DNA of 27,196 bases from Conexivisphaerales archaeon. GTDB taxonomy: Archaea > Thermoproteota > Nitrososphaeria > Conexivisphaerales > DTJL01. Both the position numbers and the translations under genes were made by a program. The stretch is taken from NCBI GenBank assembly GCA_049509455.1, contig JBEKZX010000018.1, positions 1 through 27,196 on the forward strand. Direction: 5' to 3'. Position 1 is the stretch's first letter, and every line of letters begins with the position of its first letter. This document shows positions 3,534-25,527 of the stretch, piece by piece. The notes below the pieces were generated by a model that did no database searches, was not told the DNA's origin, and saw only the letters and a list, made by a program, of their open reading frames with translations.

Positions 3534-3755
3534 CTCCTTCAATTAACCTATTGTCTTCAATAACACAAAGATGATTAAGCGATAGCCGTCATCGCCAGAA
3601 TGATAACAACGCCATCTTTCCTGTTGGACGTCTTGATTTCGGATATCTATCGCTGCTGGAAGGAATTACGATGTCACGAGACCTTTTGGTGTTAATTGAG
3701 AGCAGGTTGAGTTCCAGTAATCTGTCGCCTTGTGGTCAGGCATCGAAGTATATCT
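3534..3755 (+). repeat. Most complete copy of the modular intergenic repeat (modules T-B1-B2-B3-C)
   Basis: T 3534-3574, B1 3570-3598, B2 3596-3632, B3 3637-3661, C 3691-3753. Each module has at least one other copy in the window. Confidence 0.9.
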
Positions 3756-3934
3756 GTAAGTCCGACTTAGAAACGAGTACTAGTAAATCCGGACCCTCGG
3801 GGATTGCATTTGGTGGTCGTACTTGCGTGGGAATTCATGTTGTCACCAAAAGTGTCGGTCGGTTAAGGCCAAGCCAATCATGATCGTCTTGGACACCTGT
3901 TTCTGCTGAATGAGAGCCAATATCACCGACTTGA

Positions 3935-3994
3935 CTGACGATGACGACTCTATCGCTTAATCATCCTTAAGCTATTGAATACAACTGAATAATT
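3935..3994 (-). repeat. Inverted copy of modules B1+T
   Basis: The reverse complement of 3935-3965 (gatgattaagcgatagagtcgtcatcgtcag) matches 3570-3598, with the first 16 nt identical. 3961-3994 matches the reverse complement of T at 25/34. Confidence 0.85.
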
Positions 3995-3999
3995 CAGTT
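3983..3999. promoter_or_regulatory. Perfect 8-bp inverted repeat AACTGAAT-A-ATTCAGTT (operator- or terminator-like)
   Basis: Seen directly, 12 nt past the stop codon of the minus-strand pilin-like gene; function unknown. Confidence 0.35.
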
Positions 4000-4010
4000 A
4001 CAGAGGCAAC

Positions 4011-4394
4011 TCACGGCCAGACTGACCGGTACGGGTAGCTGTTCCCTGCCGCCGTCACTACTGCGACTTCATAGCTCTGTCCCGAACTGACGTTTAAGAT
4101 TGAACTCTCAATTAGCAGCTCTCGCTGAGTTCCTGACGCCAACAGGAAAGCGCCAGCTGAAGTACTGTTGAAATCCCCTTCGGCGGTGATACTGCTCATC
4201 GGCAGCGACACGTCAAACAAGACCTGAGTGACGGTCGCTGAAACAGGGCTGTTGTTGAATATGTAGATGATGAGGGTGCTGTTGGAGGCGTCTGTCGATG
4301 CGGCGAGAACGAGTTTCTCCGTGTGTGGACCGGGTATGACGAGACCAGACCCGAAGGATGCTTGAAGTCCGAAGAAGGCCACCAGCCCGACCAA
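4011..4394 (-). CDS. Archaeal pilin/archaellin-like small secreted protein, 5' end probably damaged
   Basis: The in-frame upstream sequence reads SSGKTG-YIAIAIFLVGLVAFFGLQ (class III signal-peptide-like). The domain is beta-rich and ends in YEVAVVTAAGNSY, typical of archaeal pilin-like proteins. No ATG/GTG/TTG precedes the signal. Confidence 0.6.
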   Translation of the reverse strand: MVGLVAFFGLQASFGSGLVIPGPHTEKLVLAASTDASNSTLIIYIFNNSPVSATVTQVLFDVSLPMSSITAEGDFNSTSAGAFLLASGTQRELLIESSILNVSSGQSYEVAVVTAAGNSYPYRSVWP

Positions 4395-4465
4395 GAAGAT
4401 GGCTATCGCAATGTACCCTGTCTTACCTGAACTGTCTTGGGTCGTGTAGTAGACTGAGGTATTGC

Positions 4466-4588
4466 CAAGATATGAATGTTGAGCTGATAATCGACCGAGC
4501 TTTGTTTCAGGGACGTGGGCTTGGACCTGCGAATGTGCCTGGCTCGTTCATCTTTGTGTCGTTGAAAACAATAGGTTAATTGAAGGAG
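4466..4588 (+). repeat. Modules E (4466-4486), D (4511-4547) and inverted T (4548-4588)
   Basis: E matches 25161-25182 (19/22, one-base offset at the 5' end). D ggacgtgggcttggacctgcgaatg recurs at 5590, 6296 and 12268. T matches at 38/41. Confidence 0.9.
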
Positions 4589-4783
4589 GATAGGTCAGCC
4601 TGCGGGCCCGGCGGGACCTGCCATTCACAACTGGGTCCTTGGCCTCATCTCGGCTATTCATTCGAGCCCCGGAATGCGGGTGCTCCAATGCGCGTCAGGA
4701 AGACGGGACCTCAGAGGAAGGCGCCGCATCGATGGTCAGGCGGCCGATATGTTTGCATCTCACAGCGGGGAACCGACGATGGG

Positions 4784-4789
4784 TTTAAG
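4784..4789 (+). promoter_or_regulatory. Archaeal TATA box (TTTAAG) for the cNMP-binding gene
   Basis: About 25 nt upstream of ATG 4814, which fits a leaderless archaeal transcript. Confidence 0.55.
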
Positions 4790-4813
4790 TTTCCACTTCA
4801 AAGACCTCACTTG

Positions 4814-5242
4814 ATGAAAGAAGGCGTAGGACAGCCGGACTTTGCCAGCGCCCTGGCCTCGGTTTCCCTTTTCTCCGGCCTCGGGAAGAAGGAGCTGCAG
4901 AAGGCGGCGGAGTTGGGCCAAGATCTGTCCTTCCAGGCGGGCCAGACGATAGTCAAGGAGGGAGAGCTCGGAATCGGGTTCTACGTGATACTCTCGGGGA
5001 AGGCGGAAGTCAGGAGGAGGGGCAAGGTGATGACGGCTCTAGGGAAGGGCGACTTCTTCGGCGAAATGGCGGTGTTGGGCAACCAGCCGAGGTCGGCCGA
5101 CGTCGTCGCCGTCGAGCCTACACGCTGCGCCGGTTACATCGCCCGGTCGTTCGGAGCTCTCATACACATAAGGCCCGAAATCCCCGCCGCCATCCTGGTC
5201 GAGCTAGTCAAACGCAGCGCTGCCAACGCGTCGTCAAAGTAG
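4814..5242 (+). CDS. Stand-alone cyclic-nucleotide-binding domain protein (no HTH)
   Basis: SLFSGL...IVKEGELGIGFYVILSGKAEV...LGKGDFFGEMAVLGNQPRSADVVA is a complete CAP/cNMP fold with its phosphate-binding cassette. Start moved from 4580 to ATG 4814 on the TATA position. Confidence 0.9.
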   Translation: MKEGVGQPDFASALASVSLFSGLGKKELQKAAELGQDLSFQAGQTIVKEGELGIGFYVILSGKAEVRRRGKVMTALGKGDFFGEMAVLGNQPRSADVVAVEPTRCAGYIARSFGALIHIRPEIPAAILVELVKRSAANASSK

Positions 5243-5534
5243 GGCAGCGGTCGCCGTGATCCACGGATATGCTGGTCTCTCCGGGTCCCATGGGATTTCG
5301 GCACATCGGAGAATCATCTAGTCGCGTCTAGACCAGATTGGCAACGAGGCAAGACCTTAGCCTAGGGTTCGACACGTGCATGAGCGTATCTCCTAAGAAC
5401 ACGAAGCCGAAAGACTCACGAGGACGATCAGCGGGACATCCGTCAGTCGCTAGCCGAAGGAGAAGAGAGGCGAATTGAGCCCAAGGGACAATCCAGTGCT
5501 TGGAGACGATACCTCTTCCGGCATCCCATCTTGT

Positions 5535-5654
5535 TTTTGGATATCTATCGCTGCTGGAAAAGAAATCAATATCATCAACCACCCGCCTTGGACGTAGGCT
5601 TGGATCGGCGAAATGGGCTGACTGGGTCATCTTTGTGTCATTGAAATCAATATG
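5535..5654 (+). repeat. Modules B3 (5535-5559), D (5590-5626) and partial inverted T (5627-5654)
   Basis: ggatatctatcgctgctggaa (5539-5559) is identical to 3641-3661; partial T matches at 24/28. Confidence 0.9.
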
Positions 5655-5877
5655 CAGAGGGAACGTGGGATGTACCCCATACGTCGCTATGCTTCGATTA
5701 GGATGTTGCTCTTTTGGGCTCGCGTCTGACTTTGCTGTGCAGGTAAACACATCCCACAGACATCCCACTGCTACAGAGCTACAAGCGGTCTAACATCATG
5801 AGAGTTCAATGATTGGTCTCATTCGCCATAGGCTTATATACTGAGAGAATCGACGCGGAATGAGGAAGGACTTCTAA

Positions 5878-6090
5878 TTGACAGAACCGGTAAAGGCTGC
5901 CGACAACCGCAACATGCATGCCATCATTCTGACTGTGTTAGGAATAATCCTATTGATCGCTGGACTGGCGATCATAACTATTCGTGGCGCCCCTTTTCGC
6001 GGCTCGGGACTGGGGACCCTCGCAACTCTGGCAGGTATCGTGCTACTGGCCTTCGCCTTTCTCAGGTTTAGGCAAAAGCCCCGGAAATAA
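5878..6090 (+). CDS. Small two-helix membrane protein, hypothetical
   Basis: Two hydrophobic segments and a basic C-terminus; TATA-like CTTATATA at about 5833-5840. The start could instead be ATG MHAII. Confidence 0.7.
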   Translation: MTEPVKAADNRNMHAIILTVLGIILLIAGLAIITIRGAPFRGSGLGTLATLAGIVLLAFAFLRFRQKPRK

Positions 6091-6295
6091 GCCTCCTTTC
6101 ACGGACTCGTCCATTTCCCTTTTTCTCTGAGCGTCCCTTACGTTCTGTAATCGCATCGCCCGAATCTGAACGAGGGTTTGCTCTTCTCAACTCTTGCAGT
6201 TCTTGAGTGGTGAACTTCCGATGTCATCTCTTATCGCTCCTTTCGAACAGTCATCTTATTTGATGGTAACGACAGGCAGAAGCGGGTTGTTGCCT

Positions 6296-6412
6296 GGACG
6301 TAGGCTTGGACCTGCGAATGGGCTGACTTCGTTCATCGTTGTGTTATTGGAAACGATAGGTTAACTGAGAGAGAACGAAGCCGACCAGCATCCACGGTAT
6401 TTTTGGATATCT
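6296..6412 (+). repeat. Modules D (6296-6332), inverted T (6333-6373) and B3 core (6401-6412)
   Basis: T matches at 34/41; taggcttggacctgcgaatgggc (6301-6323) is identical to 12268-12290; ttttggatatct core present. Confidence 0.9.
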
Positions 6413-6593
6413 GTTCTACTAGGACGCCAAGCCGACATATCATTTTGCCATATTTTTGTGGTTTCAATCAAGCCTTCGATTTGCCATTAAGCATTTCATC
6501 ATTTCCGACTTCGTTCATGAACACCCTCAGAACTCAGGCGCACGCCCAAGGCGGGCTACTTAAAAGCGGCTCCAGCCCACTATCCGACCGGTC

Positions 6594-8246
6594 TTGGCCG
6601 GGCAGAACCGTCCAGCCGCCATCGAGGGAAGAAACGCGCGCCCAAAGGAAATCCTGCTTGTGGCAGGCTTGCTTGCTAGCATTCTGACCTTCTTCAGCCT
6701 CTTCTCGATGTTCTACCTCAGCCAGACAATCGATGACATGCTGGATGTCACGCTGATGGATGAATTTCCTCGACTCCTCTCCACCGGGTTCGTGACCAAT
6801 GCGTGGTTCTATCCAGTCTCGGTGCAAATCAAGGATGGGTTTGACCTGAATTTCCTTCCCAGTCTGATTGGGAACGTCGTCAACTTTTTCGTCGCGGACT
6901 GGGTACTCACGCAGAGAATCGTCGCAGTGCTGCTGGTCTTCGGCACGGCTCTGTCGATGTACTACTTCCTTCGTCGTGTTGGCACCGAACCTTTCGGGGC
7001 GCTGGTCGGCGCAGTCGCCTATGGCTTCAGTGACCAATTCATCATGCGAATGCCTTCACATCTCTCTCTTCTAAGCGGCTTCGTCTTTCCGCTACTGATG
7101 CTCGCCTTGTATGAGAATAGGAAATACCTCGCAGGACTCATGCTGGGGCTCGCATACTGGTCAAGCCCCTTCTTCGGAATCATGGCACTGATGCTCTTGG
7201 CGCTGTATCTGGCGCGGGAGGTCTGGCGCAGCCGCGGAGTGAGTCGCGCACTGCTCTCCAAGTACGTAGTCGCCGGCCTCATCTTCGCTGTCATGGCCGG
7301 CCCGCTCATTCCCTTCGGCATGCCTGCTCAGTGGAGCTCCACGACCAACACGTTGCAGAGCCTTCTCTGGAGAAACCAGTACGCCTACTTCTTTCCTGGC
7401 AATCCAGTGCAGCTGTGGGAGCAGACGCCGTCGTACCTCGGACTCTCAACCGTCGTGCTGGCCGTCGTTTCCATCCTTCGCCGTCGGAGCCCCCTAAGCG
7501 TGTTCATGATCGTGTGCGGTGCAGTCTTTGCAGTCATTTCGCTCTTGCCGCCCGTGGCCTGGCCCTTCACCAGCCTTCGGGAGGTGACCCGATTCTCCAC
7601 CCTGACCACCTTTTCGTTGGCCTTCGTGGCTGGGCAGGTCTTCTCTTCCGCACCCAAGCTGCGAGTGCCGACCAAGGCCTTGATCGCCGCCATCGTGCTC
7701 GCCGTCATCATCGCAGACAACCTCGTTGCGGCACCGGCGTGGTATTTCACCCCGCAATCGGCAGGCTACCAATGGAATGACCCAGGCTTCGCCCTCATCG
7801 CCAAAGACCACGCAGGGATCGCCGAAGTAGACTTGCCGATCCTGCCCTCCACCGCGGGTCTCGTGTACTATCAGTACTACGGGGTGCTCACAGGAAAGGA
7901 TGTCGTGGACGGTGAGACCTCGGGGCTCACGCAAGTTGCCGCCTCGGACCACTTCGTCGAGGAACAGCACTTCCTAAGTCGGTTTTTCATTCCCTACATT
8001 CCCAACGTCACCAACAAGTGGCTCCTGTCCTACAATACAAGCGCATTTGCGACTCCTACACAGGCCGCGGACCTGACTCAGCTACGACAGATGGGCATCG
8101 ATTACCTCATCCTGCACACGAAGCTGTACGGGGACATCCAGGGGTCAGACGCGGCCCGCACGTATCTCGACGGCCTGGTATCGAGAGGATGGCTGAGCCT
8201 TATGTATAGCGATGCTGAAGTCGTAATCTATCAAATCGTAGTCTAG
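6594..8246 (+). CDS. Polytopic membrane protein, GT-C (YfhO/PMT-like) glycosyltransferase-like
   Basis: About 11-12 hydrophobic segments, an acidic loop after TM1 (TIDDMLDVTLMDE), AYGFS and PSYLG motifs, and a soluble C-terminal domain ending LRQMGIDYLILH...VVIYQI. TTAAAA at 6560-6565. Confidence 0.7.
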   Translation: MAGQNRPAAIEGRNARPKEILLVAGLLASILTFFSLFSMFYLSQTIDDMLDVTLMDEFPRLLSTGFVTNAWFYPVSVQIKDGFDLNFLPSLIGNVVNFFVADWVLTQRIVAVLLVFGTALSMYYFLRRVGTEPFGALVGAVAYGFSDQFIMRMPSHLSLLSGFVFPLLMLALYENRKYLAGLMLGLAYWSSPFFGIMALMLLALYLAREVWRSRGVSRALLSKYVVAGLIFAVMAGPLIPFGMPAQWSSTTNTLQSLLWRNQYAYFFPGNPVQLWEQTPSYLGLSTVVLAVVSILRRRSPLSVFMIVCGAVFAVISLLPPVAWPFTSLREVTRFSTLTTFSLAFVAGQVFSSAPKLRVPTKALIAAIVLAVIIADNLVAAPAWYFTPQSAGYQWNDPGFALIAKDHAGIAEVDLPILPSTAGLVYYQYYGVLTGKDVVDGETSGLTQVAASDHFVEEQHFLSRFFIPYIPNVTNKWLLSYNTSAFATPTQAADLTQLRQMGIDYLILHTKLYGDIQGSDAARTYLDGLVSRGWLSLMYSDAEVVIYQIVV

Positions 8247-8296
8247 CAGCCATTGGGGCGTGCAGAGGACCTGGGGCTCCCCAAGGTCTATGGAAC

Positions 8297-8380
8297 GATT
8301 AAGCGAGAGTCGTCAGAGTCAGAATGATAACAACGCCATCTTTCCTGTTGGACGTCATAATTTTGGATATCTCGTGCTGC
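8297..8380 (+). repeat. Modules B1-B2-B3
   Basis: 8320-8356 is identical over 37 nt to 3596-3632 (cagaatgataacaacgccatctttcctgttggacgtc), flanked by B1- and B3-like sequence in the same order. Confidence 0.95.
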
Positions 8381-8448
8381 AAGATAACCTTTAGTCCGAT
8401 CTTGACTTTGCAATGTCAATCTTGATACCGTCGATTCCTGACGACCGA

Positions 8449-9096
8449 TCAGGTGAGTCTTGCACTACGCCATAGGACGTCCTTCAGACTGAGCATGCGG
8501 TCCTTAGTCAGCGCGAAGATCAGATTGTAGTTCAACAATGAGGCGTACACCGCCGCCAGCGTTACCTTCGCACTGGAGTTAAGAGGTATCGACAAACCAC
8601 AAGCATCCGATCCTTTGAAGATCTGGGGGTAGTAATAGGCATCTCCAATGCACTGAGGATAACCATAGAGTATCCAGACCGACCAAATCGCAACGAAAGC
8701 GCTCAAGAAGACGACGCTCGTCCATTTGAATGACAGATGCTTCCTGAACAAGAGAATGGGAATGATGGGCGCAACCATAGTAATCAGATATTTTGTTTGG
8801 GGACCACTAAGTGAGATCGGTTTGAAGTAGTTCAGATATATCGGAAACGTGAAGTGGTATACCAATTCGTAAGTTTGAACATATGCGAAAGCGAACACAA
8901 GTGATGCAACAACGGCGTCCAGCTTGCCCATCTTTGAATTAGTCATTGAGACTTCTGCGGTGACATATAAGAGAGCCACTATGGCCAATGTGACAGGTGT
9001 TACGTCTCCCAAGAACTTGACCGAGTAGTCTCGTTGAGATAGCAGGTATAACGAATAGACCAAGGCAAGGATGGCGGCACCCCGAAGTCCCCACAT
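8449..9096 (-). CDS. Hypothetical polytopic membrane protein (about 6 TM)
   Basis: Long hydrophobic ORF; the frame extends to 9216 but ATG 9096 (MWGLRG) is the more plausible start. Confidence 0.75.
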   Translation of the reverse strand: MWGLRGAAILALVYSLYLLSQRDYSVKFLGDVTPVTLAIVALLYVTAEVSMTNSKMGKLDAVVASLVFAFAYVQTYELVYHFTFPIYLNYFKPISLSGPQTKYLITMVAPIIPILLFRKHLSFKWTSVVFLSAFVAIWSVWILYGYPQCIGDAYYYPQIFKGSDACGLSIPLNSSAKVTLAAVYASLLNYNLIFALTKDRMLSLKDVLWRSARLT

Positions 9097-9308
9097 GAGA
9101 TACTCAGAAACTCCTTTGGAATTGCTACGATCAGTGGGCCGATCTTGGATTATTTGTTCGGGGGGTGACACGCAGCACCGCCTGGAGAATGGGTCTGTTC
9201 GGCTCGCAAATAACATTTTGTGTTGGTATTTGGATCATCAAATCTCGGTGGTAAATATCTTTCAGAACCCTTAAAATATGGATATGCGCGACGGGTTGTT
9301 GTTCGAAT

Positions 9309-9728
9309 GTGAATAAAGGAACCACTCAAAGGTTAGCCATGATTTCTCTCGGGGTTTCTGCGTTGCTAGGTGTGCTCATCTTGGTCCTCGATAAGATACT
9401 ACCCAATAGGTTCCTCTTCGCATACGGCAATGTAGTCGCCCCCATCTCCCACGTCCAGGCGCTCATCGGTATGATCATCATAGACGTCATTGTGGCCATT
9501 CTGGTTTTTGTGAGACCAAGGACAGGCCTGATAATTGCAGGTGTCTGGGGCGCGCTTCAACTGCTTGCCATGGCCGCGAACCCAATAGAGGGGCCTTCGT
9601 TCGGCATGTCTGTCTCAGCCTTTGCTTCATATCTTTTCGGCCTACCAGAGTATGATGCCCGTCTTATAGTACAATTATTCACGATCTACTTTGGCTGGAA
9701 AGGTTACTTCCAATTCAAGAAAGCATAG
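9309..9728 (+). CDS. Four-helix membrane protein, free-standing homolog of the N-terminal domain of the Rieske fusion at 18384-19349
   Basis: Ungapped 70-aa alignment with 25 identities, including SH..LI.M and FASYLFGLP.YD; TTAAAATA at 9271-9278. Confidence 0.85.
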   Translation: MNKGTTQRLAMISLGVSALLGVLILVLDKILPNRFLFAYGNVVAPISHVQALIGMIIIDVIVAILVFVRPRTGLIIAGVWGALQLLAMAANPIEGPSFGMSVSAFASYLFGLPEYDARLIVQLFTIYFGWKGYFQFKKA

Positions 9729-9858
9729 ACAAGGCTCAGCATTTTTGTATTGCACATTCACCCTCACTATCAAGTGGAAAGCATCCTTGATTCGAATTGG
9801 AGGAACCTGGTTTTCAACCGAGATAGAAATATAAGGTCCAACTCACCTTCTTGCTCTA

Positions 9859-10710
9859 TTGTCGGTTGGTGTAACGGGGCCTGCCACCATCAGAGTATCT
9901 GACCATCTCTCCTTGAGGCTCTATCCTGACTCACGCCCTCACCTGTTGGAGAACGCAACACTTCAGAAGGGCTTGGTGTTGGTGTTCGACGGAGAAGAGC
10001 TTGTCGAAGAAGGCATGGGTTTAGGGACACCCGTAGTCAGGTACTCCAACGACATATACTTCTCAAGCTCCGCTCACACCTTCGTTGAACATGGAGATGG
10101 CGCCAACCAAGTCCTGAAGAAGTCCTTCCTCATCGATTCCGTGTCTAGGAAGCGCATTTGGAATGGGCCCTTCATCAATGCCCGGATTTACGACGTCCTT
10201 CATCTTGCATTTGCCCGAGCGTATATCTCAAAAGGACATCCCAACAGGTTCCTGACCAAGCTGGTTGAAATACGGAGGTCTCTAGGAATACGCACCCAGT
10301 TTGTTCAGACCCAGTCAAAGGGCAAGGTCACGATCAGCTACAGACGGTTTCCCAACGTCATCCAAGTGCGTGCTGACTTGAGCGAACTGCACAAACCAGG
10401 ATGTGAGGAAATCCTCATCATGAATGAAGCCGGATCGACATTTTTCACGAAGTATACAGACCGAAATGGTCTCGAGCTAGTGAATGATGAAATTGGAGCG
10501 TGGAATAAGGTCGAAGCTACAGAGGCTTCTCTCTCAGACTTCAGCGGAACCCTGCTTTTCAGTCTGAAGAAGACGGAAGGGGCCGATTTGTATAGGGGAT
10601 GGGAGCGGGTCAAAGGACGTCTCTCCTGGGCTGGATTGAGCTACTCCATGAAAGCTTGGAAGCCGGTTTTCGAATACTACATAAGAATACAAAGTGACAA
10701 GTATGGTTGA
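9859..10710 (+). CDS. Hypothetical soluble protein, translationally coupled to the radical SAM gene
   Basis: 283-aa ORF with protein-like composition; its stop overlaps the start of the next gene; AATATAAG at 9828-9835. Confidence 0.8.
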   Translation: MSVGVTGPATIRVSDHLSLRLYPDSRPHLLENATLQKGLVLVFDGEELVEEGMGLGTPVVRYSNDIYFSSSAHTFVEHGDGANQVLKKSFLIDSVSRKRIWNGPFINARIYDVLHLAFARAYISKGHPNRFLTKLVEIRRSLGIRTQFVQTQSKGKVTISYRRFPNVIQVRADLSELHKPGCEEILIMNEAGSTFFTKYTDRNGLELVNDEIGAWNKVEATEASLSDFSGTLLFSLKKTEGADLYRGWERVKGRLSWAGLSYSMKAWKPVFEYYIRIQSDKYG

Positions 10711-12052
10711 CCTTCTTCTAATTTACCCGTACTACAACGACAACAATTCAATCTTCAAATTCCCTCCTCTCGGCGTAGGCTACATCGCATCCTACGTGAA
10801 GAAACATGGCTATTCCGTGTCTATCATAGATTGTACGTTCATGCGTGAACAGGATGCCGTGAGCAAGGCAAGAAGCATGAAGCCCAGAGTTATCGGAATC
10901 TACTCGATGCTGAGCATGAAAGACACGGCAATCAGACTAGCCAAGGCGCTGAAAGGTCAAGCCGAATTGACGATTGCCGGCGGGCCCCTGCCGACATCTT
11001 TGCCCGAATCGTTCCTGGACGATTTCGACATAGTGGTCCTTCGCGAAGGTGAAGAGACGGTACTTGAAATCCTTGCCGCGCTCGATAGAGGTAGGGGTAT
11101 CTTCGAGGTCGAAGGCATAGCATACCGGAACCCTGACGGATCCACTGTCAAGACACCCACCCGAGAATTGAACCCTAGCTTGGATTCCCTGCCTTTTCCA
11201 GAGAGAGAGATGTATGACCATGAGAGGTACAAGAGCTATTATCGAAGGCACCATGGCTATACAATCACATCAATCATGACTTCTAGAGGGTGTCCATTCG
11301 ACTGTGACTTCTGCAGCCGTCCAGTCTTCGGGAACGTCTTCAGGAGCAGGTCCGCCGCGAACGTAGTTGATGAAATGGAGATAATCAAGGAATTTGGCTA
11401 TGACAGGATATGGATAGCTGACGACATCTTTCCCCTCACCAAGAAGATCGGTTTAGAAATCTGTGATGAGATAACGAAAAGAAAGCTGGACATCTCCTGG
11501 GAATGCCTCTGCAGGTCCGACCTTCTGGACTTGGAAATCGCATCAAAGATGAAGGCTTCTGGATGTCATCGCGTCTTCTTCGGCTTGGAGTCGGGGAACA
11601 ATGAGGTTCTAAGACTGATGAGGAAGCGCATCACCACCAACCAAGCTCGCGAGGCGGTGGAGACTGTGAACTCTGTTGGAATCAGAGCTGGGGCGTTCTT
11701 CATACTGGGCTATCCTGGAGAGTCAAACGATACCATGCTCGATACGATGAGGTTCGCCTCTTCTCTCCCGTTAGACTACCTTTCATTCACCGTGCCATAT
11801 CCGCTCCCCGGCACCGCGCTTTTTGAAAGACTCAAGGACAGGATATTGGTCGACGAGTGGAAGAAGCCAAGATCAGCCTTTGTTGACCATGTTCTTCTCT
11901 ACAGATCTGAGTTCTCCATGGGCAAGTTGAGATTCGGTATTATTATGGCGACGTCTCAGCACCTATTAAGAAAACACCTCGGTCCAGGATATCCCCTAGT
12001 GGGGAAACCCATTGACGTCATTACTGGCCGCGTCTTCACAGCACTAAGGTAA
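10703..12052 (+). CDS. B12-binding domain / radical SAM protein (class B methylase-like)
   Basis: N-terminal PPLGVGYIASY B12 domain with GGPLPT and IVVLREGEET; SRGCPFDCDFC CxxxCxxC motif; FFGLESG and FILGYPGE motifs. ATG 10703 or GTG 10694. Confidence 0.93.
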   Translation: MVDLLLIYPYYNDNNSIFKFPPLGVGYIASYVKKHGYSVSIIDCTFMREQDAVSKARSMKPRVIGIYSMLSMKDTAIRLAKALKGQAELTIAGGPLPTSLPESFLDDFDIVVLREGEETVLEILAALDRGRGIFEVEGIAYRNPDGSTVKTPTRELNPSLDSLPFPEREMYDHERYKSYYRRHHGYTITSIMTSRGCPFDCDFCSRPVFGNVFRSRSAANVVDEMEIIKEFGYDRIWIADDIFPLTKKIGLEICDEITKRKLDISWECLCRSDLLDLEIASKMKASGCHRVFFGLESGNNEVLRLMRKRITTNQAREAVETVNSVGIRAGAFFILGYPGESNDTMLDTMRFASSLPLDYLSFTVPYPLPGTALFERLKDRILVDEWKKPRSAFVDHVLLYRSEFSMGKLRFGIIMATSQHLLRKHLGPGYPLVGKPIDVITGRVFTALR

Positions 12053-12267
12053 GAGTCCAACCCATCTTATTCTAGGGCACCGGTCCATCATAGCACCTTG
12101 AGCGGAGAAACTCATCAATAGTCTCTTCTCGGCGCACGGCTGAGGCTGTTCGAGCGATGAGGACTTTCCTTGACCTGTTCAGCCTTCCAAATCACATCTC
12201 GCCAAGCGTCTCATGAGGTCACCCCCCTTTTACACGGAGCGACTCTGACCGACCGCGGACCCCACCT

Positions 12268-12290
12268 TAGGCTTGGACCTGCGAATGGGC
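12268..12290 (+). repeat. Isolated module D core
   Basis: 23-nt exact match to 6301-6323. Confidence 0.85.
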
Positions 12291-12477
12291 CTGATTCAGA
12301 TTTAAGTTTCCCCAACTTGCAGGCTCGACAAACACGAATTGTGTTTTCATAGGTACCTTTGGTTTATGCTTCAAGCTTCAAGTGATATCCTGTCGTGTCG
12401 TTCCCCATCGAGGCTTCAGATGATATCTTCACAGCGGAGTATATGTGGTGGCTGAACCACCAATCTTCTGTACAGGT

Positions 12478-25160: not shown

Positions 25161-25299
25161 CCGAGACATGAATGTTGAACTGGCTTGGAGATCTATTGCT
25201 GCGGAGAAGGATCACGACATCGCGCGTCTTGTAGGCGTTAATTGAAAACAGGTTGAGTTCCATTAATCTAGCGACGTGTGGTCACGCATCGAAGTATAT
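25161..25299 (+). repeat. Modules E, degenerate B3 and C
   Basis: 25237-25299 matches 3691-3753 at 55/63; the ungapped similarity extends back to about 25189 vs 3643. Confidence 0.92.
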
Positions 25300-25527
25300 G
25301 TCGTGGTTGGACCACTACATATCAGCTAGCGTGGAAGGCATGACCAGCCCTGCGCCGCTGGGTGATAGGGCGGTGCCGCTGAAGGCGCTTCGCGAGATTG
25401 TGGAGACCTACATGGGGAAACCCCAAATACAATCCTCATGTTCAAGGATTGCGCAGAAGCCTAGCTCCCGGACGGACTTGGGCAACTTTATTAGGAGACG
25501 AAAGGCAATCGCTACCGATCAGTCAGC

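Follow-up and report, generated by a model that had tools for sequence, protein, structure and literature searches.

To our knowledge, no machinery other than the integron is so far well understood for the stockpiling and reshuffling of single-gene cassettes in chromosomes, and we know of archaeal integrons only as canonical attC/IntI systems in a few metagenome-assembled genomes (MAGs). The present analysis concerns a 27,196-nt stretch of DNA (hereafter the window) from a Conexivisphaerales archaeon (GenBank assembly GCA_049509455.1, contig JBEKZX010000018.1, positions 1 to 27,196), in which small genes are separated by copies of a modular repeat. The full repeat site has the constant module order [E]-D-[T' or F], and module D contains a 16-nt core. 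On balance, and with moderate confidence, the locus is read here as a cassette array that is integron-like in architecture only and that recombines at the D core by enzyme-directed site-specific exchange. Canonical integrons have been reported in archaeal MAGs by Ghaly et al. 2022 (PMC9668308). Other systems relevant for comparison are the plasmid dif (pdif) modules of Acinetobacter, which are moved by XerC/XerD (PMC13141974, PMC6449649), and the insertion sequences of the IS1111 group, which home into attC sites and into repetitive extragenic palindromic (REP) sequences (PMC11187229).

The arrays of D sites resemble sedentary chromosomal integrons and clusters of attC sites lacking an integrase (CALINs), such as the Vibrio cholerae repeat (VCR) array, in that lineage-specific, homogeneous and co-oriented sites surround one or two mostly small accessory genes. 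As in integrons, the cassette order varies between close relatives, the sites are more alike within than between lineages, and IS1111-type insertion sequences home into them. As in an integron or CALIN, open reading frames (ORFs) are also separated by two or more sites that share one orientation and lie less than 4 kb from each other. In contrast to integrons, the D arrays have no attC R/L boxes, as the initial annotation had already stated: the box pair RYYYAAC...GTTRRRY (57-141 nt apart) was absent from all 73 sites when both strands were searched up to 120 nt on each side of the core, compared with its presence in 0.7% of control intergenic windows. The long single-strand hairpin of attC is also missing, and the conserved part is a 16-nt core with arms of 6-7 nt. 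Instead of a single imperfect hairpin, the three sites of the window fold as separate small hairpins, with z values between -0.1 and 0.2 in two of them and a value of -2.8 in the third (RNA parameters only). No IntI was found in the genome or beside the array, an absence that is not proven because the genome is 95.5% complete. The cargo genes point either way relative to the sites, and are apparently self-expressed. Exchange occurs in the middle of the site, so that cassettes carry long site-derived sequence at both ends. Because of the differences in attC boxes, hairpin, IntI and cargo orientation, the D arrays were placed outside the integrons.

The likeness to pdif modules lies in discrete gene modules and in short core sites with inverted arms and a 6-nt spacer, which occur in many contexts and have no recombinase of their own. 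However, pdif sites alternate in orientation, have 11-nt arms (11-6-11) and match the chromosomal dif, whereas D sites are direct repeats with arms of 6-7 nt. No Xer-like gene was found beyond a tRNA-linked integrase. As with REP sequences and bacterial interspersed mosaic elements (BIMEs), the D sites are short, intergenic, imperfect palindromes of high copy number (73 copies, 68 of them intergenic) which are used in mosaic fashion, such repeats being targets of IS1111/IS110-family elements (PMC11187229). REPs, however, are distributed genome-wide, often alternate, and are tied to a REP-flanked REP-associated tyrosine transposase (RAYT), whereas D sites are clustered in accessory arrays and co-oriented. 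No RAYT was found, and the only Y1 HUH gene detected belongs to an IS605-type element whose ends bear no relation to D or T. Miniature inverted-repeat transposable elements (MITEs) have terminal inverted repeats, target-site duplications, and filled and empty sites that differ by the element alone; the two ends of E-D-T' do not form an inverted repeat, no flanking duplication was seen, and the variants differ by whole gene-bearing or gene-sized units. Tandem accretion at an att core (the lambda-type 15-bp core, or archaeal tRNA-targeting integrases) shares with the D arrays the direct, short, identical cores between independently acquired DNA segments and the exchange inside the core. It differs in that D units measure 0.3-5 kb without an integrase, number tens per array, and have a core that is not in a tRNA gene. 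The D arrays are therefore of the cassette-array kind but outside the integron, dif-module and REP/BIME families. A literature search for similar archaeal repeat-bounded cassettes returned nothing relevant.

Architecture of the array

The window is contig C51 of the source genome (G000), a 2.05-Mb assembly of 140 contigs that is 17% intergenic. A repeat finder detected a direct three-copy family at 4502-4588, 5581-5667 and 6287-6373, with 68-79% identity to the reference copy, and a codon-model gene caller trained on the G000 genome placed a single gene in each interval, at 4011-4394 (-), 4814-5242 (+) and 5878-6090 (+). The D+T' sites with one gene per interval that the initial annotation had described were thus confirmed, and the strands bore out its remark that the genes are not all co-oriented. 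Its assignment of the middle gene to the cyclic-nucleotide-binding proteins was confirmed by Pfam. The first gene, which it had called pilin-like, does encode an N-terminal hydrophobic helix, and the label itself is unverified: a Pfam scan at the curated cut-off gave no family for cargo 1 or cargo 3, and no ATG, GTG or TTG precedes the helix in the frame of cargo 1. The array also extends further than had been described, to a fourth site, D+F at 12270-12362. All coordinates are collected in Table 1.

Table 1. Modules, sites and cargo genes of the array in the window, and copies of the E-targeting insertion sequence in the sister species (G004)
Feature	Position	Strand	Remarks
T module, opposite orientation, left edge of array	3534-3574	-	93% complementary to 4548-4588
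B module, then E-type module (GGATATCTATCGCTGCTGGAA)	3573-3673	+	E runs up to the ATG of small ORF 3671-3883
Decayed B'/T' module, 5' end of first cassette	3935-3994	+	80-82% match to 3551-3598, other strand
Cargo 1, small membrane-anchored protein, start codon uncertain	4011-4460	-	No Pfam family
D site 1	4511-4545	+	16-nt core 4518-4533
T' module 1, 5' end of cassette 2	4548-4588	+	Repeat family
Cargo 2, cyclic-nucleotide-binding protein	4814-5242	+	PF00027, 5.9e-19
E module 2	5534-5580	+	E family match
D site 2	5590-5624	+	Core 5597-5612, 2 mismatches
T' module 2, 5' end of cassette 3	5627-5667	+	Diverged beyond 5652; homology to G004:C5 starts at 5626
Cargo 3, 70-aa protein, two predicted transmembrane helices	5878-6090	+	Gene call
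D site 3	6296-6330	+	Core 6303-6318; homology to G004:C5 stops at ~6327-6331
T' module 3	6333-6373	+	Repeat family
Partial E-like box (TTTTTGGATATCTGTTC), upstream of next gene	6396-6420	+	Read from sequence
Fourth interval: 550-aa membrane protein, B module 8297-8380, four further genes	6594-12052	.	Gene calls
D site 4, then F (module with internal hairpin)	12263-12362	+	Core 12270-12285
IS1111-type copies in G004	L247 = G004:C3:188396-191827; L249 = G004:C7:18168-21599; G004:C3:1345-2710		One copy frameshifted

The D core and the modular repeat family

An alignment of all copies defined the 16-nt D core, GGCTTGGACCTGCGAA, which is preceded by (G)ACGTR and followed, after a gap of 0-4 nt, by TGGGCYGAC. 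The source genome contains 39 exact cores, and 73 when up to two mismatches are allowed, compared with 0-3 for 20 shuffled cores. BLAST and iterated nhmmer searches found the repeat dispersed across 29 contigs, many of them short, and 68 of the 73 cores are intergenic in a genome of which only 17% is. Upstream of D, module E (TTTTTGGATATCTATCGCTGCTGGAAAAGAAATCAATATC...) is often present, and many sites have D without E. Downstream, D is followed by T', by F, which is a different module with its own hairpin, or by unique sequence.

Module D consists of inverted arms of 6-7 nt, (A)CGTRGG and CCTGCG(A), around an asymmetric 6-nt spacer, CTTGGA. The greater part of these elements falls within the 16-nt core, and their geometry is that of a recombinase core site. 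The module folds into a 6-bp stem with a 6-nt loop. At positions -2/-1 of the stem, pairing on the D strand was retained in 91%/93% of the sites (U-G and G-U wobbles), compared with 9%/33% on the other strand, a bias suggestive of one strand being read while folded, either as RNA or as single-stranded DNA.

Polarity, spacing and cargo

Adjacent sites were co-oriented in 38:2 cases in G000 and in 35:2 cases in the fetched parts of G004, the genome of a sister species. G004 is one of four congeners (G001-G004) and consists of only ten contigs, which made it useful for viewing whole arrays. The modal number of genes between sites was one, in 20 of 40 intervals in G000 and 16 of 37 in G004, with two genes being the next most common, and the median site spacing was 1.1-1.4 kb. 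The one-gene periodicity of the initial annotation therefore holds elsewhere than in the window. On contig C2 of G004, co-oriented runs extend over 14.7-34 kb, 45-49 kb and 94.8-103.9 kb, followed by a run of opposite orientation at 104.6-110.6 kb. At the junction (G004:C2:103887-104630), two E-D sites lie back to back across ~600 bp and the entire array flips orientation there. The intervening segment shows homology with a portion of G000:C62:4025-4450, which overlaps the beginning of the gene for a GNAT acetyltransferase (C62:4459-5010). D sites are found within a few kb of both orc1/cdc6 genes of the genus, G000:C59:17852-19350 with a site directly beside the gene, and G004:C4:335462-344950. 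With regard to a replication-tied orientation, orc1/cdc6 is near some sites, yet none was found at the orientation switch at 104 kb of G004:C2.

The orientation of D was independent of the flanking gene strands (the four combinations occurred 17, 15, 15 and 13 times; the ratio of same to opposite orientation was 30/32 for upstream and 32/34 for downstream neighbours). A role as a promoter, terminator or untranslated region (UTR) tied to a neighbouring gene was excluded on these grounds. The 141 array genes encode ABC-2 exporters, transporters of the major facilitator superfamily, cyclic-nucleotide-binding proteins, NHL/lactonase propellers, GNAT acetyltransferases, methyltransferases and helix-turn-helix regulators, a cargo of typical accessory genes. 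No recombinase was present among the 25 most common cargo families of these genes. The cyclic-nucleotide-binding gene of the window has eight paralogues in the genome, one of which is inside another array, on C69. The 550-aa membrane protein of the fourth interval had no homologue among the four congeners searched.

Population variants and mapping of the switch

Scanning public metagenomes for the pattern yielded 55 peat and soil contigs, many of which are 96-100% identical to G000. Contig L224 is collinear with C93 but lacks C93:6951-8020, a segment between two D sites, and the D that remains is a hybrid of both. Contig L187 lacks C93:10175-10467, which reaches from one D to the next. In L177, the cassette C112:8219-8953 was found at 98% identity with both neighbours changed, and in L174, L178, L190 and L220 one side of D is common with G000 while the other side is different. 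All variants differed by whole gene-bearing or gene-sized units, and a bare repeat was inserted or missing in none. Contig ends were also enriched at the cores, with 17 of the 73 lying within 500 nt of an end compared with 6.8% expected, as a branching assembly graph would give such breaks at D.

In order to map the switch, 206 distinct D contexts were compared for pairs in which one flank was at least 90% identical over 62 nt and the other at most 45%. For pairs sharing the left flank (n=17), the 8 nt 5' of the core were 93% identical, whereas the 14 nt 3' of it were 31% identical, against a background of 32%. For pairs sharing the right flank (n=8), the 5' side was 59% identical (background 50%) and the 3' side 92%. 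Of the 25 informative pairs, 23 had their switch within the 16-nt core. Variants at core positions 10-16 mostly tracked the right flank, and position 4 tracked the left flank in two right-shared pairs, which places the exchange near the central CTTGGA.

The initial annotation had described each gene as closed by a D+T' site. The switch lies in the D core and not after T', and consequently T' or F forms the 5' end of the next cassette, while E and the left arm of D form the 3' end of the previous one. The conserved, recombining part is D rather than T'.

Gene order and occurrence in relatives

The initial annotation had proposed a comparison of gene order across strains. The three window genes are non-syntenic in G004, where their homologues lie on C4 or C2, on C3 or C10, and on C5, respectively, and the close G004 homologues each retain their own modules. 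Homologues of cargo 1, at 70-76% identity, are flanked by D sites on both C4 and C2; the homology with C2 begins at 3961, within the decayed T' (3950-3994, 80% complementary). The unit of the two-transmembrane protein, cargo 3, is 82% identical between the window (5626-6331) and G004:C5, and the alignment begins exactly at T' and stops at the 3' end of D; beyond D, the site continues with F in G004 and with T' in the window. In G003, which has no repeat, a homologue of this gene is present without any module nearby. When all array contigs were compared with G004, homology blocks commonly started or stopped at a module or within ~100 nt of one. The cassette-array architecture that had been suggested for the window is accordingly borne out by the co-orientation (38:2 and 35:2), by the modal single gene, and by metagenome variants with lost cassettes and changed neighbours.

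A DNA search of 40 relatives found D in three of the four congeners (G001, G002 and G004, with G003 lacking it), and the remaining 36 genomes of the family, order and class gave a single borderline match (E ~0.009, 18 nt). In an exact-match scan of ~186,000 species genomes, the core was multi-copy, among the matches listed, only in four Conexivisphaerales/Nitrososphaerota soil MAGs, including G004; single matches elsewhere, among those listed, are by our estimate at the chance level for a 16-mer. Among the relatives searched and the matches listed, the repeat is, as a multi-copy family, confined to one genus of Conexivisphaerales (Nitrososphaeria).

Recombinase genes and insertion sequences

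IS110-family DEDD transposase genes were found inside arrays at G000:C52:30888 and at G004:C3:1480-2575. The element of G004 is of the IS1111 type (PF01548, 6e-28) and ~1.3 kb long. Its DEDD transposase measures 363-364 aa, and each of its ends has the 13-bp subterminal inverted repeat ATGAAAGACGCCC. The three copies in G004 are all inserted between ATCTATYGC and TGCTGGAA of module E, in one orientation and adjoining D. The element thus has the DEDD transposase, the subterminal inverted repeats and the site- and orientation-specific insertion of the IS1111 group, and it is an archaeal parallel of the attC-targeting IS1111 elements. Its insertion at E means that the modules are recognised as specific targets; movement of the cassettes by the same enzyme does not follow. 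A second IS110-family gene (G000:C52:30805-31250) lies 55 nt past a truncated T module at the end of its contig, with a D site 500 nt away; this transposase gene, at 30888 and related to that of G004, interrupts T, and the remainder of its element was not found in the assembly. No IS110-family gene was detected in G001 or G002, both of which carry D.

One IS605-type element of 1.65 kb was present, in which the only Y1_Tnp (TnpA) gene overlaps a 368-aa ORF, presumed to be TnpB. Serine resolvases were not found in G000. Neither an IS91 Y2_Tnp nor a Rep_1 was found in the genus, which is a weak negative as the control genomes likewise gave none. A 437-aa tyrosine integrase (G000:C100:1567-3027) is located directly beside tRNA-Glu(TTC) and has a 97% identical counterpart at the end of G004:C9 (16771-17217), compared with typically ~75-95% for homologous array blocks. 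Given this identity, it looks like a recently shared integrative element and was probably exchanged recently. Separately, G004:C5:9507-13443 contains two adjoining tyrosine recombinase genes (~400 and 417 aa) followed by a 368-aa gene of unassigned family, and may be an element of the recombinase-in-trio type.

Other features and readings of the repeat

Family E is represented by 4 copies in the window and by 39 in the whole genome, and the B module at 3573-3656 is repeated at 8297-8380 with 87% identity. A T-B-E composite like that at the left edge of the window array is also found at the array edge in G004:C2:14739-14880. At three loci (window 3671-3883, window 25185-25324 and G000:C124:5112-5252), an E-type box is followed by a small conserved ORF (MSRD[LH]L.LIES...). 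The ATG of this ORF is 30 nt past GGATATC, with a TATA-like box in E ~26 nt upstream of the ATG in the three copies. This spacing fits a leaderless archaeal transcript, and E would act as the promoter of the small ORF at 3671-3883.

A reading of the repeat as the 5' end of a minus-strand gene family (T carrying a TATA-like box and ATG, with D' translated as MNExxxFAGPSLRP) was rejected, as the ATG is missing in several copies, and a coding reading of T-D was rejected because indels between T and D are not multiples of three. A scan for consensus promoters and terminators gave no excess over shuffled sequences, Rfam gave no match at the gathering cut-off or at E <=1, and no tRNA was found. Derivation from a tRNA att site was also discarded, the best match being 11/12 nt to the T-arm (E 1.3, not significant). 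The ends of the IS605-type element were dismissed as a source of D and T, to which they are unrelated. An IS91 enzyme or a rolling-circle Rep acting at the loop CTTG was set aside on the blank, and weak, searches for such genes. The second IS110-family gene of G000, on C86, was likewise set aside, as there is no E or D nearby.

The window also contains a gene for a PAS histidine kinase (1084 aa) with an internal 1080-nt duplication (820-1262 and 1900-2342, 72-79% identity), which consists of repeated PAS modules. Two histidine-kinase genes, G000:C86:21831-22601 and G004:C3:379979-380755, carry one in-frame TAG each within open frames of 619 and 621 aa, and both match one and the same C-terminal part of the window kinase.

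Discussion

According to the reading favoured here, of a cassette array recombining at the D core, the window would contain units one to four of a chromosomal array of gene cassettes, which would be based on a recombination site specific to the genus. Module D would be the essential part of that site, with exchange taking place within the core. The mobile unit would open with the right half-core and the tail TGGGCYGAC, continue through T' or F into one to a few genes, which may face either way and are driven by promoters of their own, and end with an optional E and the left half-core. A site-specific recombinase acting in trans would use the directly repeated cores for the excision, loss, re-insertion and re-ordering of units, presumably with circular intermediates. 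The asymmetric spacer would keep all sites in one direction, and this would explain their uniform polarity. The earlier proposal of a gene-capture platform whose recombinase lies elsewhere is supported as regards the architecture and the evolutionary behaviour of a cassette array, and the dedicated platform itself would be an inference.

Several points weigh against enzyme-directed exchange. All the data are metagenome assemblies, in which repeats can produce mis-joins, and the 25 informative pairs partly reflect the same event in overlapping contigs, with ~12 or more independent junctions as judged by eye. No recombinase was found linked to the arrays, and the sole tyrosine recombinase (PF00589) of G000 is the one beside tRNA-Glu on C100, away from them. 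For L187 against C93, the switch lies ~15 nt beyond the 3' end of the core, in a stretch of 5 identical nt, and cleavage at one fixed point does not account for it. Apart from the core, unrelated sites have next to nothing in common, and a homology-dependent exchange would therefore map there too. These last three points would suit selfish or structural intergenic repeats, REP/BIME-like or a decayed mosaic, with the reshuffling as a by-product of general recombination or replication slippage at 16 nt of identity, and so would the short, strictly intergenic, imperfect palindromes in mosaic combinations of E, D, T', F and B. Such an origin is the main rival to the favoured reading. We regard it as rather unlikely, given that REP-like elements would not be expected to keep a ratio of 73:4 in favour of one direction for tens of kilobases regardless of gene strand, that no variant has a bare repeat gained or lost, and that the only Y1 HUH gene is in an IS605-type element with unrelated ends. 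In addition, so many independent exchanges between sequences that are 96-100% identical would have to depend on a homology of sixteen nucleotides, which is very short.

Also against the favoured reading, no D can be recognised on the left side of T' in the unit of the two-transmembrane protein on G004:C5. A unit that begins at T' is what would be expected if the T'...gene...D units were non-autonomous transposons with asymmetric ends, mobilised in trans by an HUH or an IS1111/IS110-type DEDD enzyme and inserting side by side; the one-strand bias of the D hairpin and the IS110-family genes within arrays point the same way. Little probability is given to this explanation, since 23 of 25 pairs switch in the D core and not at the D|T' junction, the subterminal repeats of the IS1111-type element are unrelated to T' and D and its target is E, and two D-bearing congeners gave no IS110-family gene; the searches for IS91 Y2 and Rep_1 were also blank, although they had no positive control. 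Slightly less again is given to E-D-T' and E-D-F as small RNA genes or regulatory transcripts, with E as promoter, D as an RNA hairpin and the intergenic position incidental. The TATA-like box of E before the small ORF and the wobble pairs of the D stem, which suit a strand transcribed from E, are in its favour. However, Rfam gave no match, many D sites have no E, and a stable RNA structure was rejected on fold energies equal to those of shuffled sequences in two of the three window copies; chromosome-wide co-orientation and context switching inside the core would also remain unexplained. A canonical integron or CALIN, for which the closely spaced co-oriented sites between single ORFs and the published integrons of archaeal MAGs might speak, is scarcely conceivable and is already contradicted by the 73 sites without a box pair, the missing long hairpin and IntI, and the cargo in both orientations.

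More tentatively than the recombining array itself, it is possible that the non-ammonia-oxidising Nitrososphaeria (Conexivisphaerales) have a new, IntI/attC-independent, site-specific cassette system, in which a recombinase still to be recognised would use a 16-nt asymmetric core to excise, capture and re-order dozens of self-expressed cassettes in each genome. Candidates for such a recombinase would be an RNA-guided DEDD enzyme, a tyrosine recombinase of divergent sequence, and an enzyme borne by a virus or plasmid. The array looks like an independent solution to cassette stockpiling in an uncultured soil and peat archaeal lineage, with a compact, well-defined core site and a turnover that is visibly ongoing in natural populations. 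If an enzyme is responsible, the arrays would represent a novel system of site-specific recombination whose target is short and looks programmable, and would explain how accessory exporters, sensors and modifying enzymes are assembled in these archaea. Even under ordinary recombination, it would be an unusual form of genome plasticity for a repeat of 16 nt to organise ~70 points of exchange in a 2-Mb genome.

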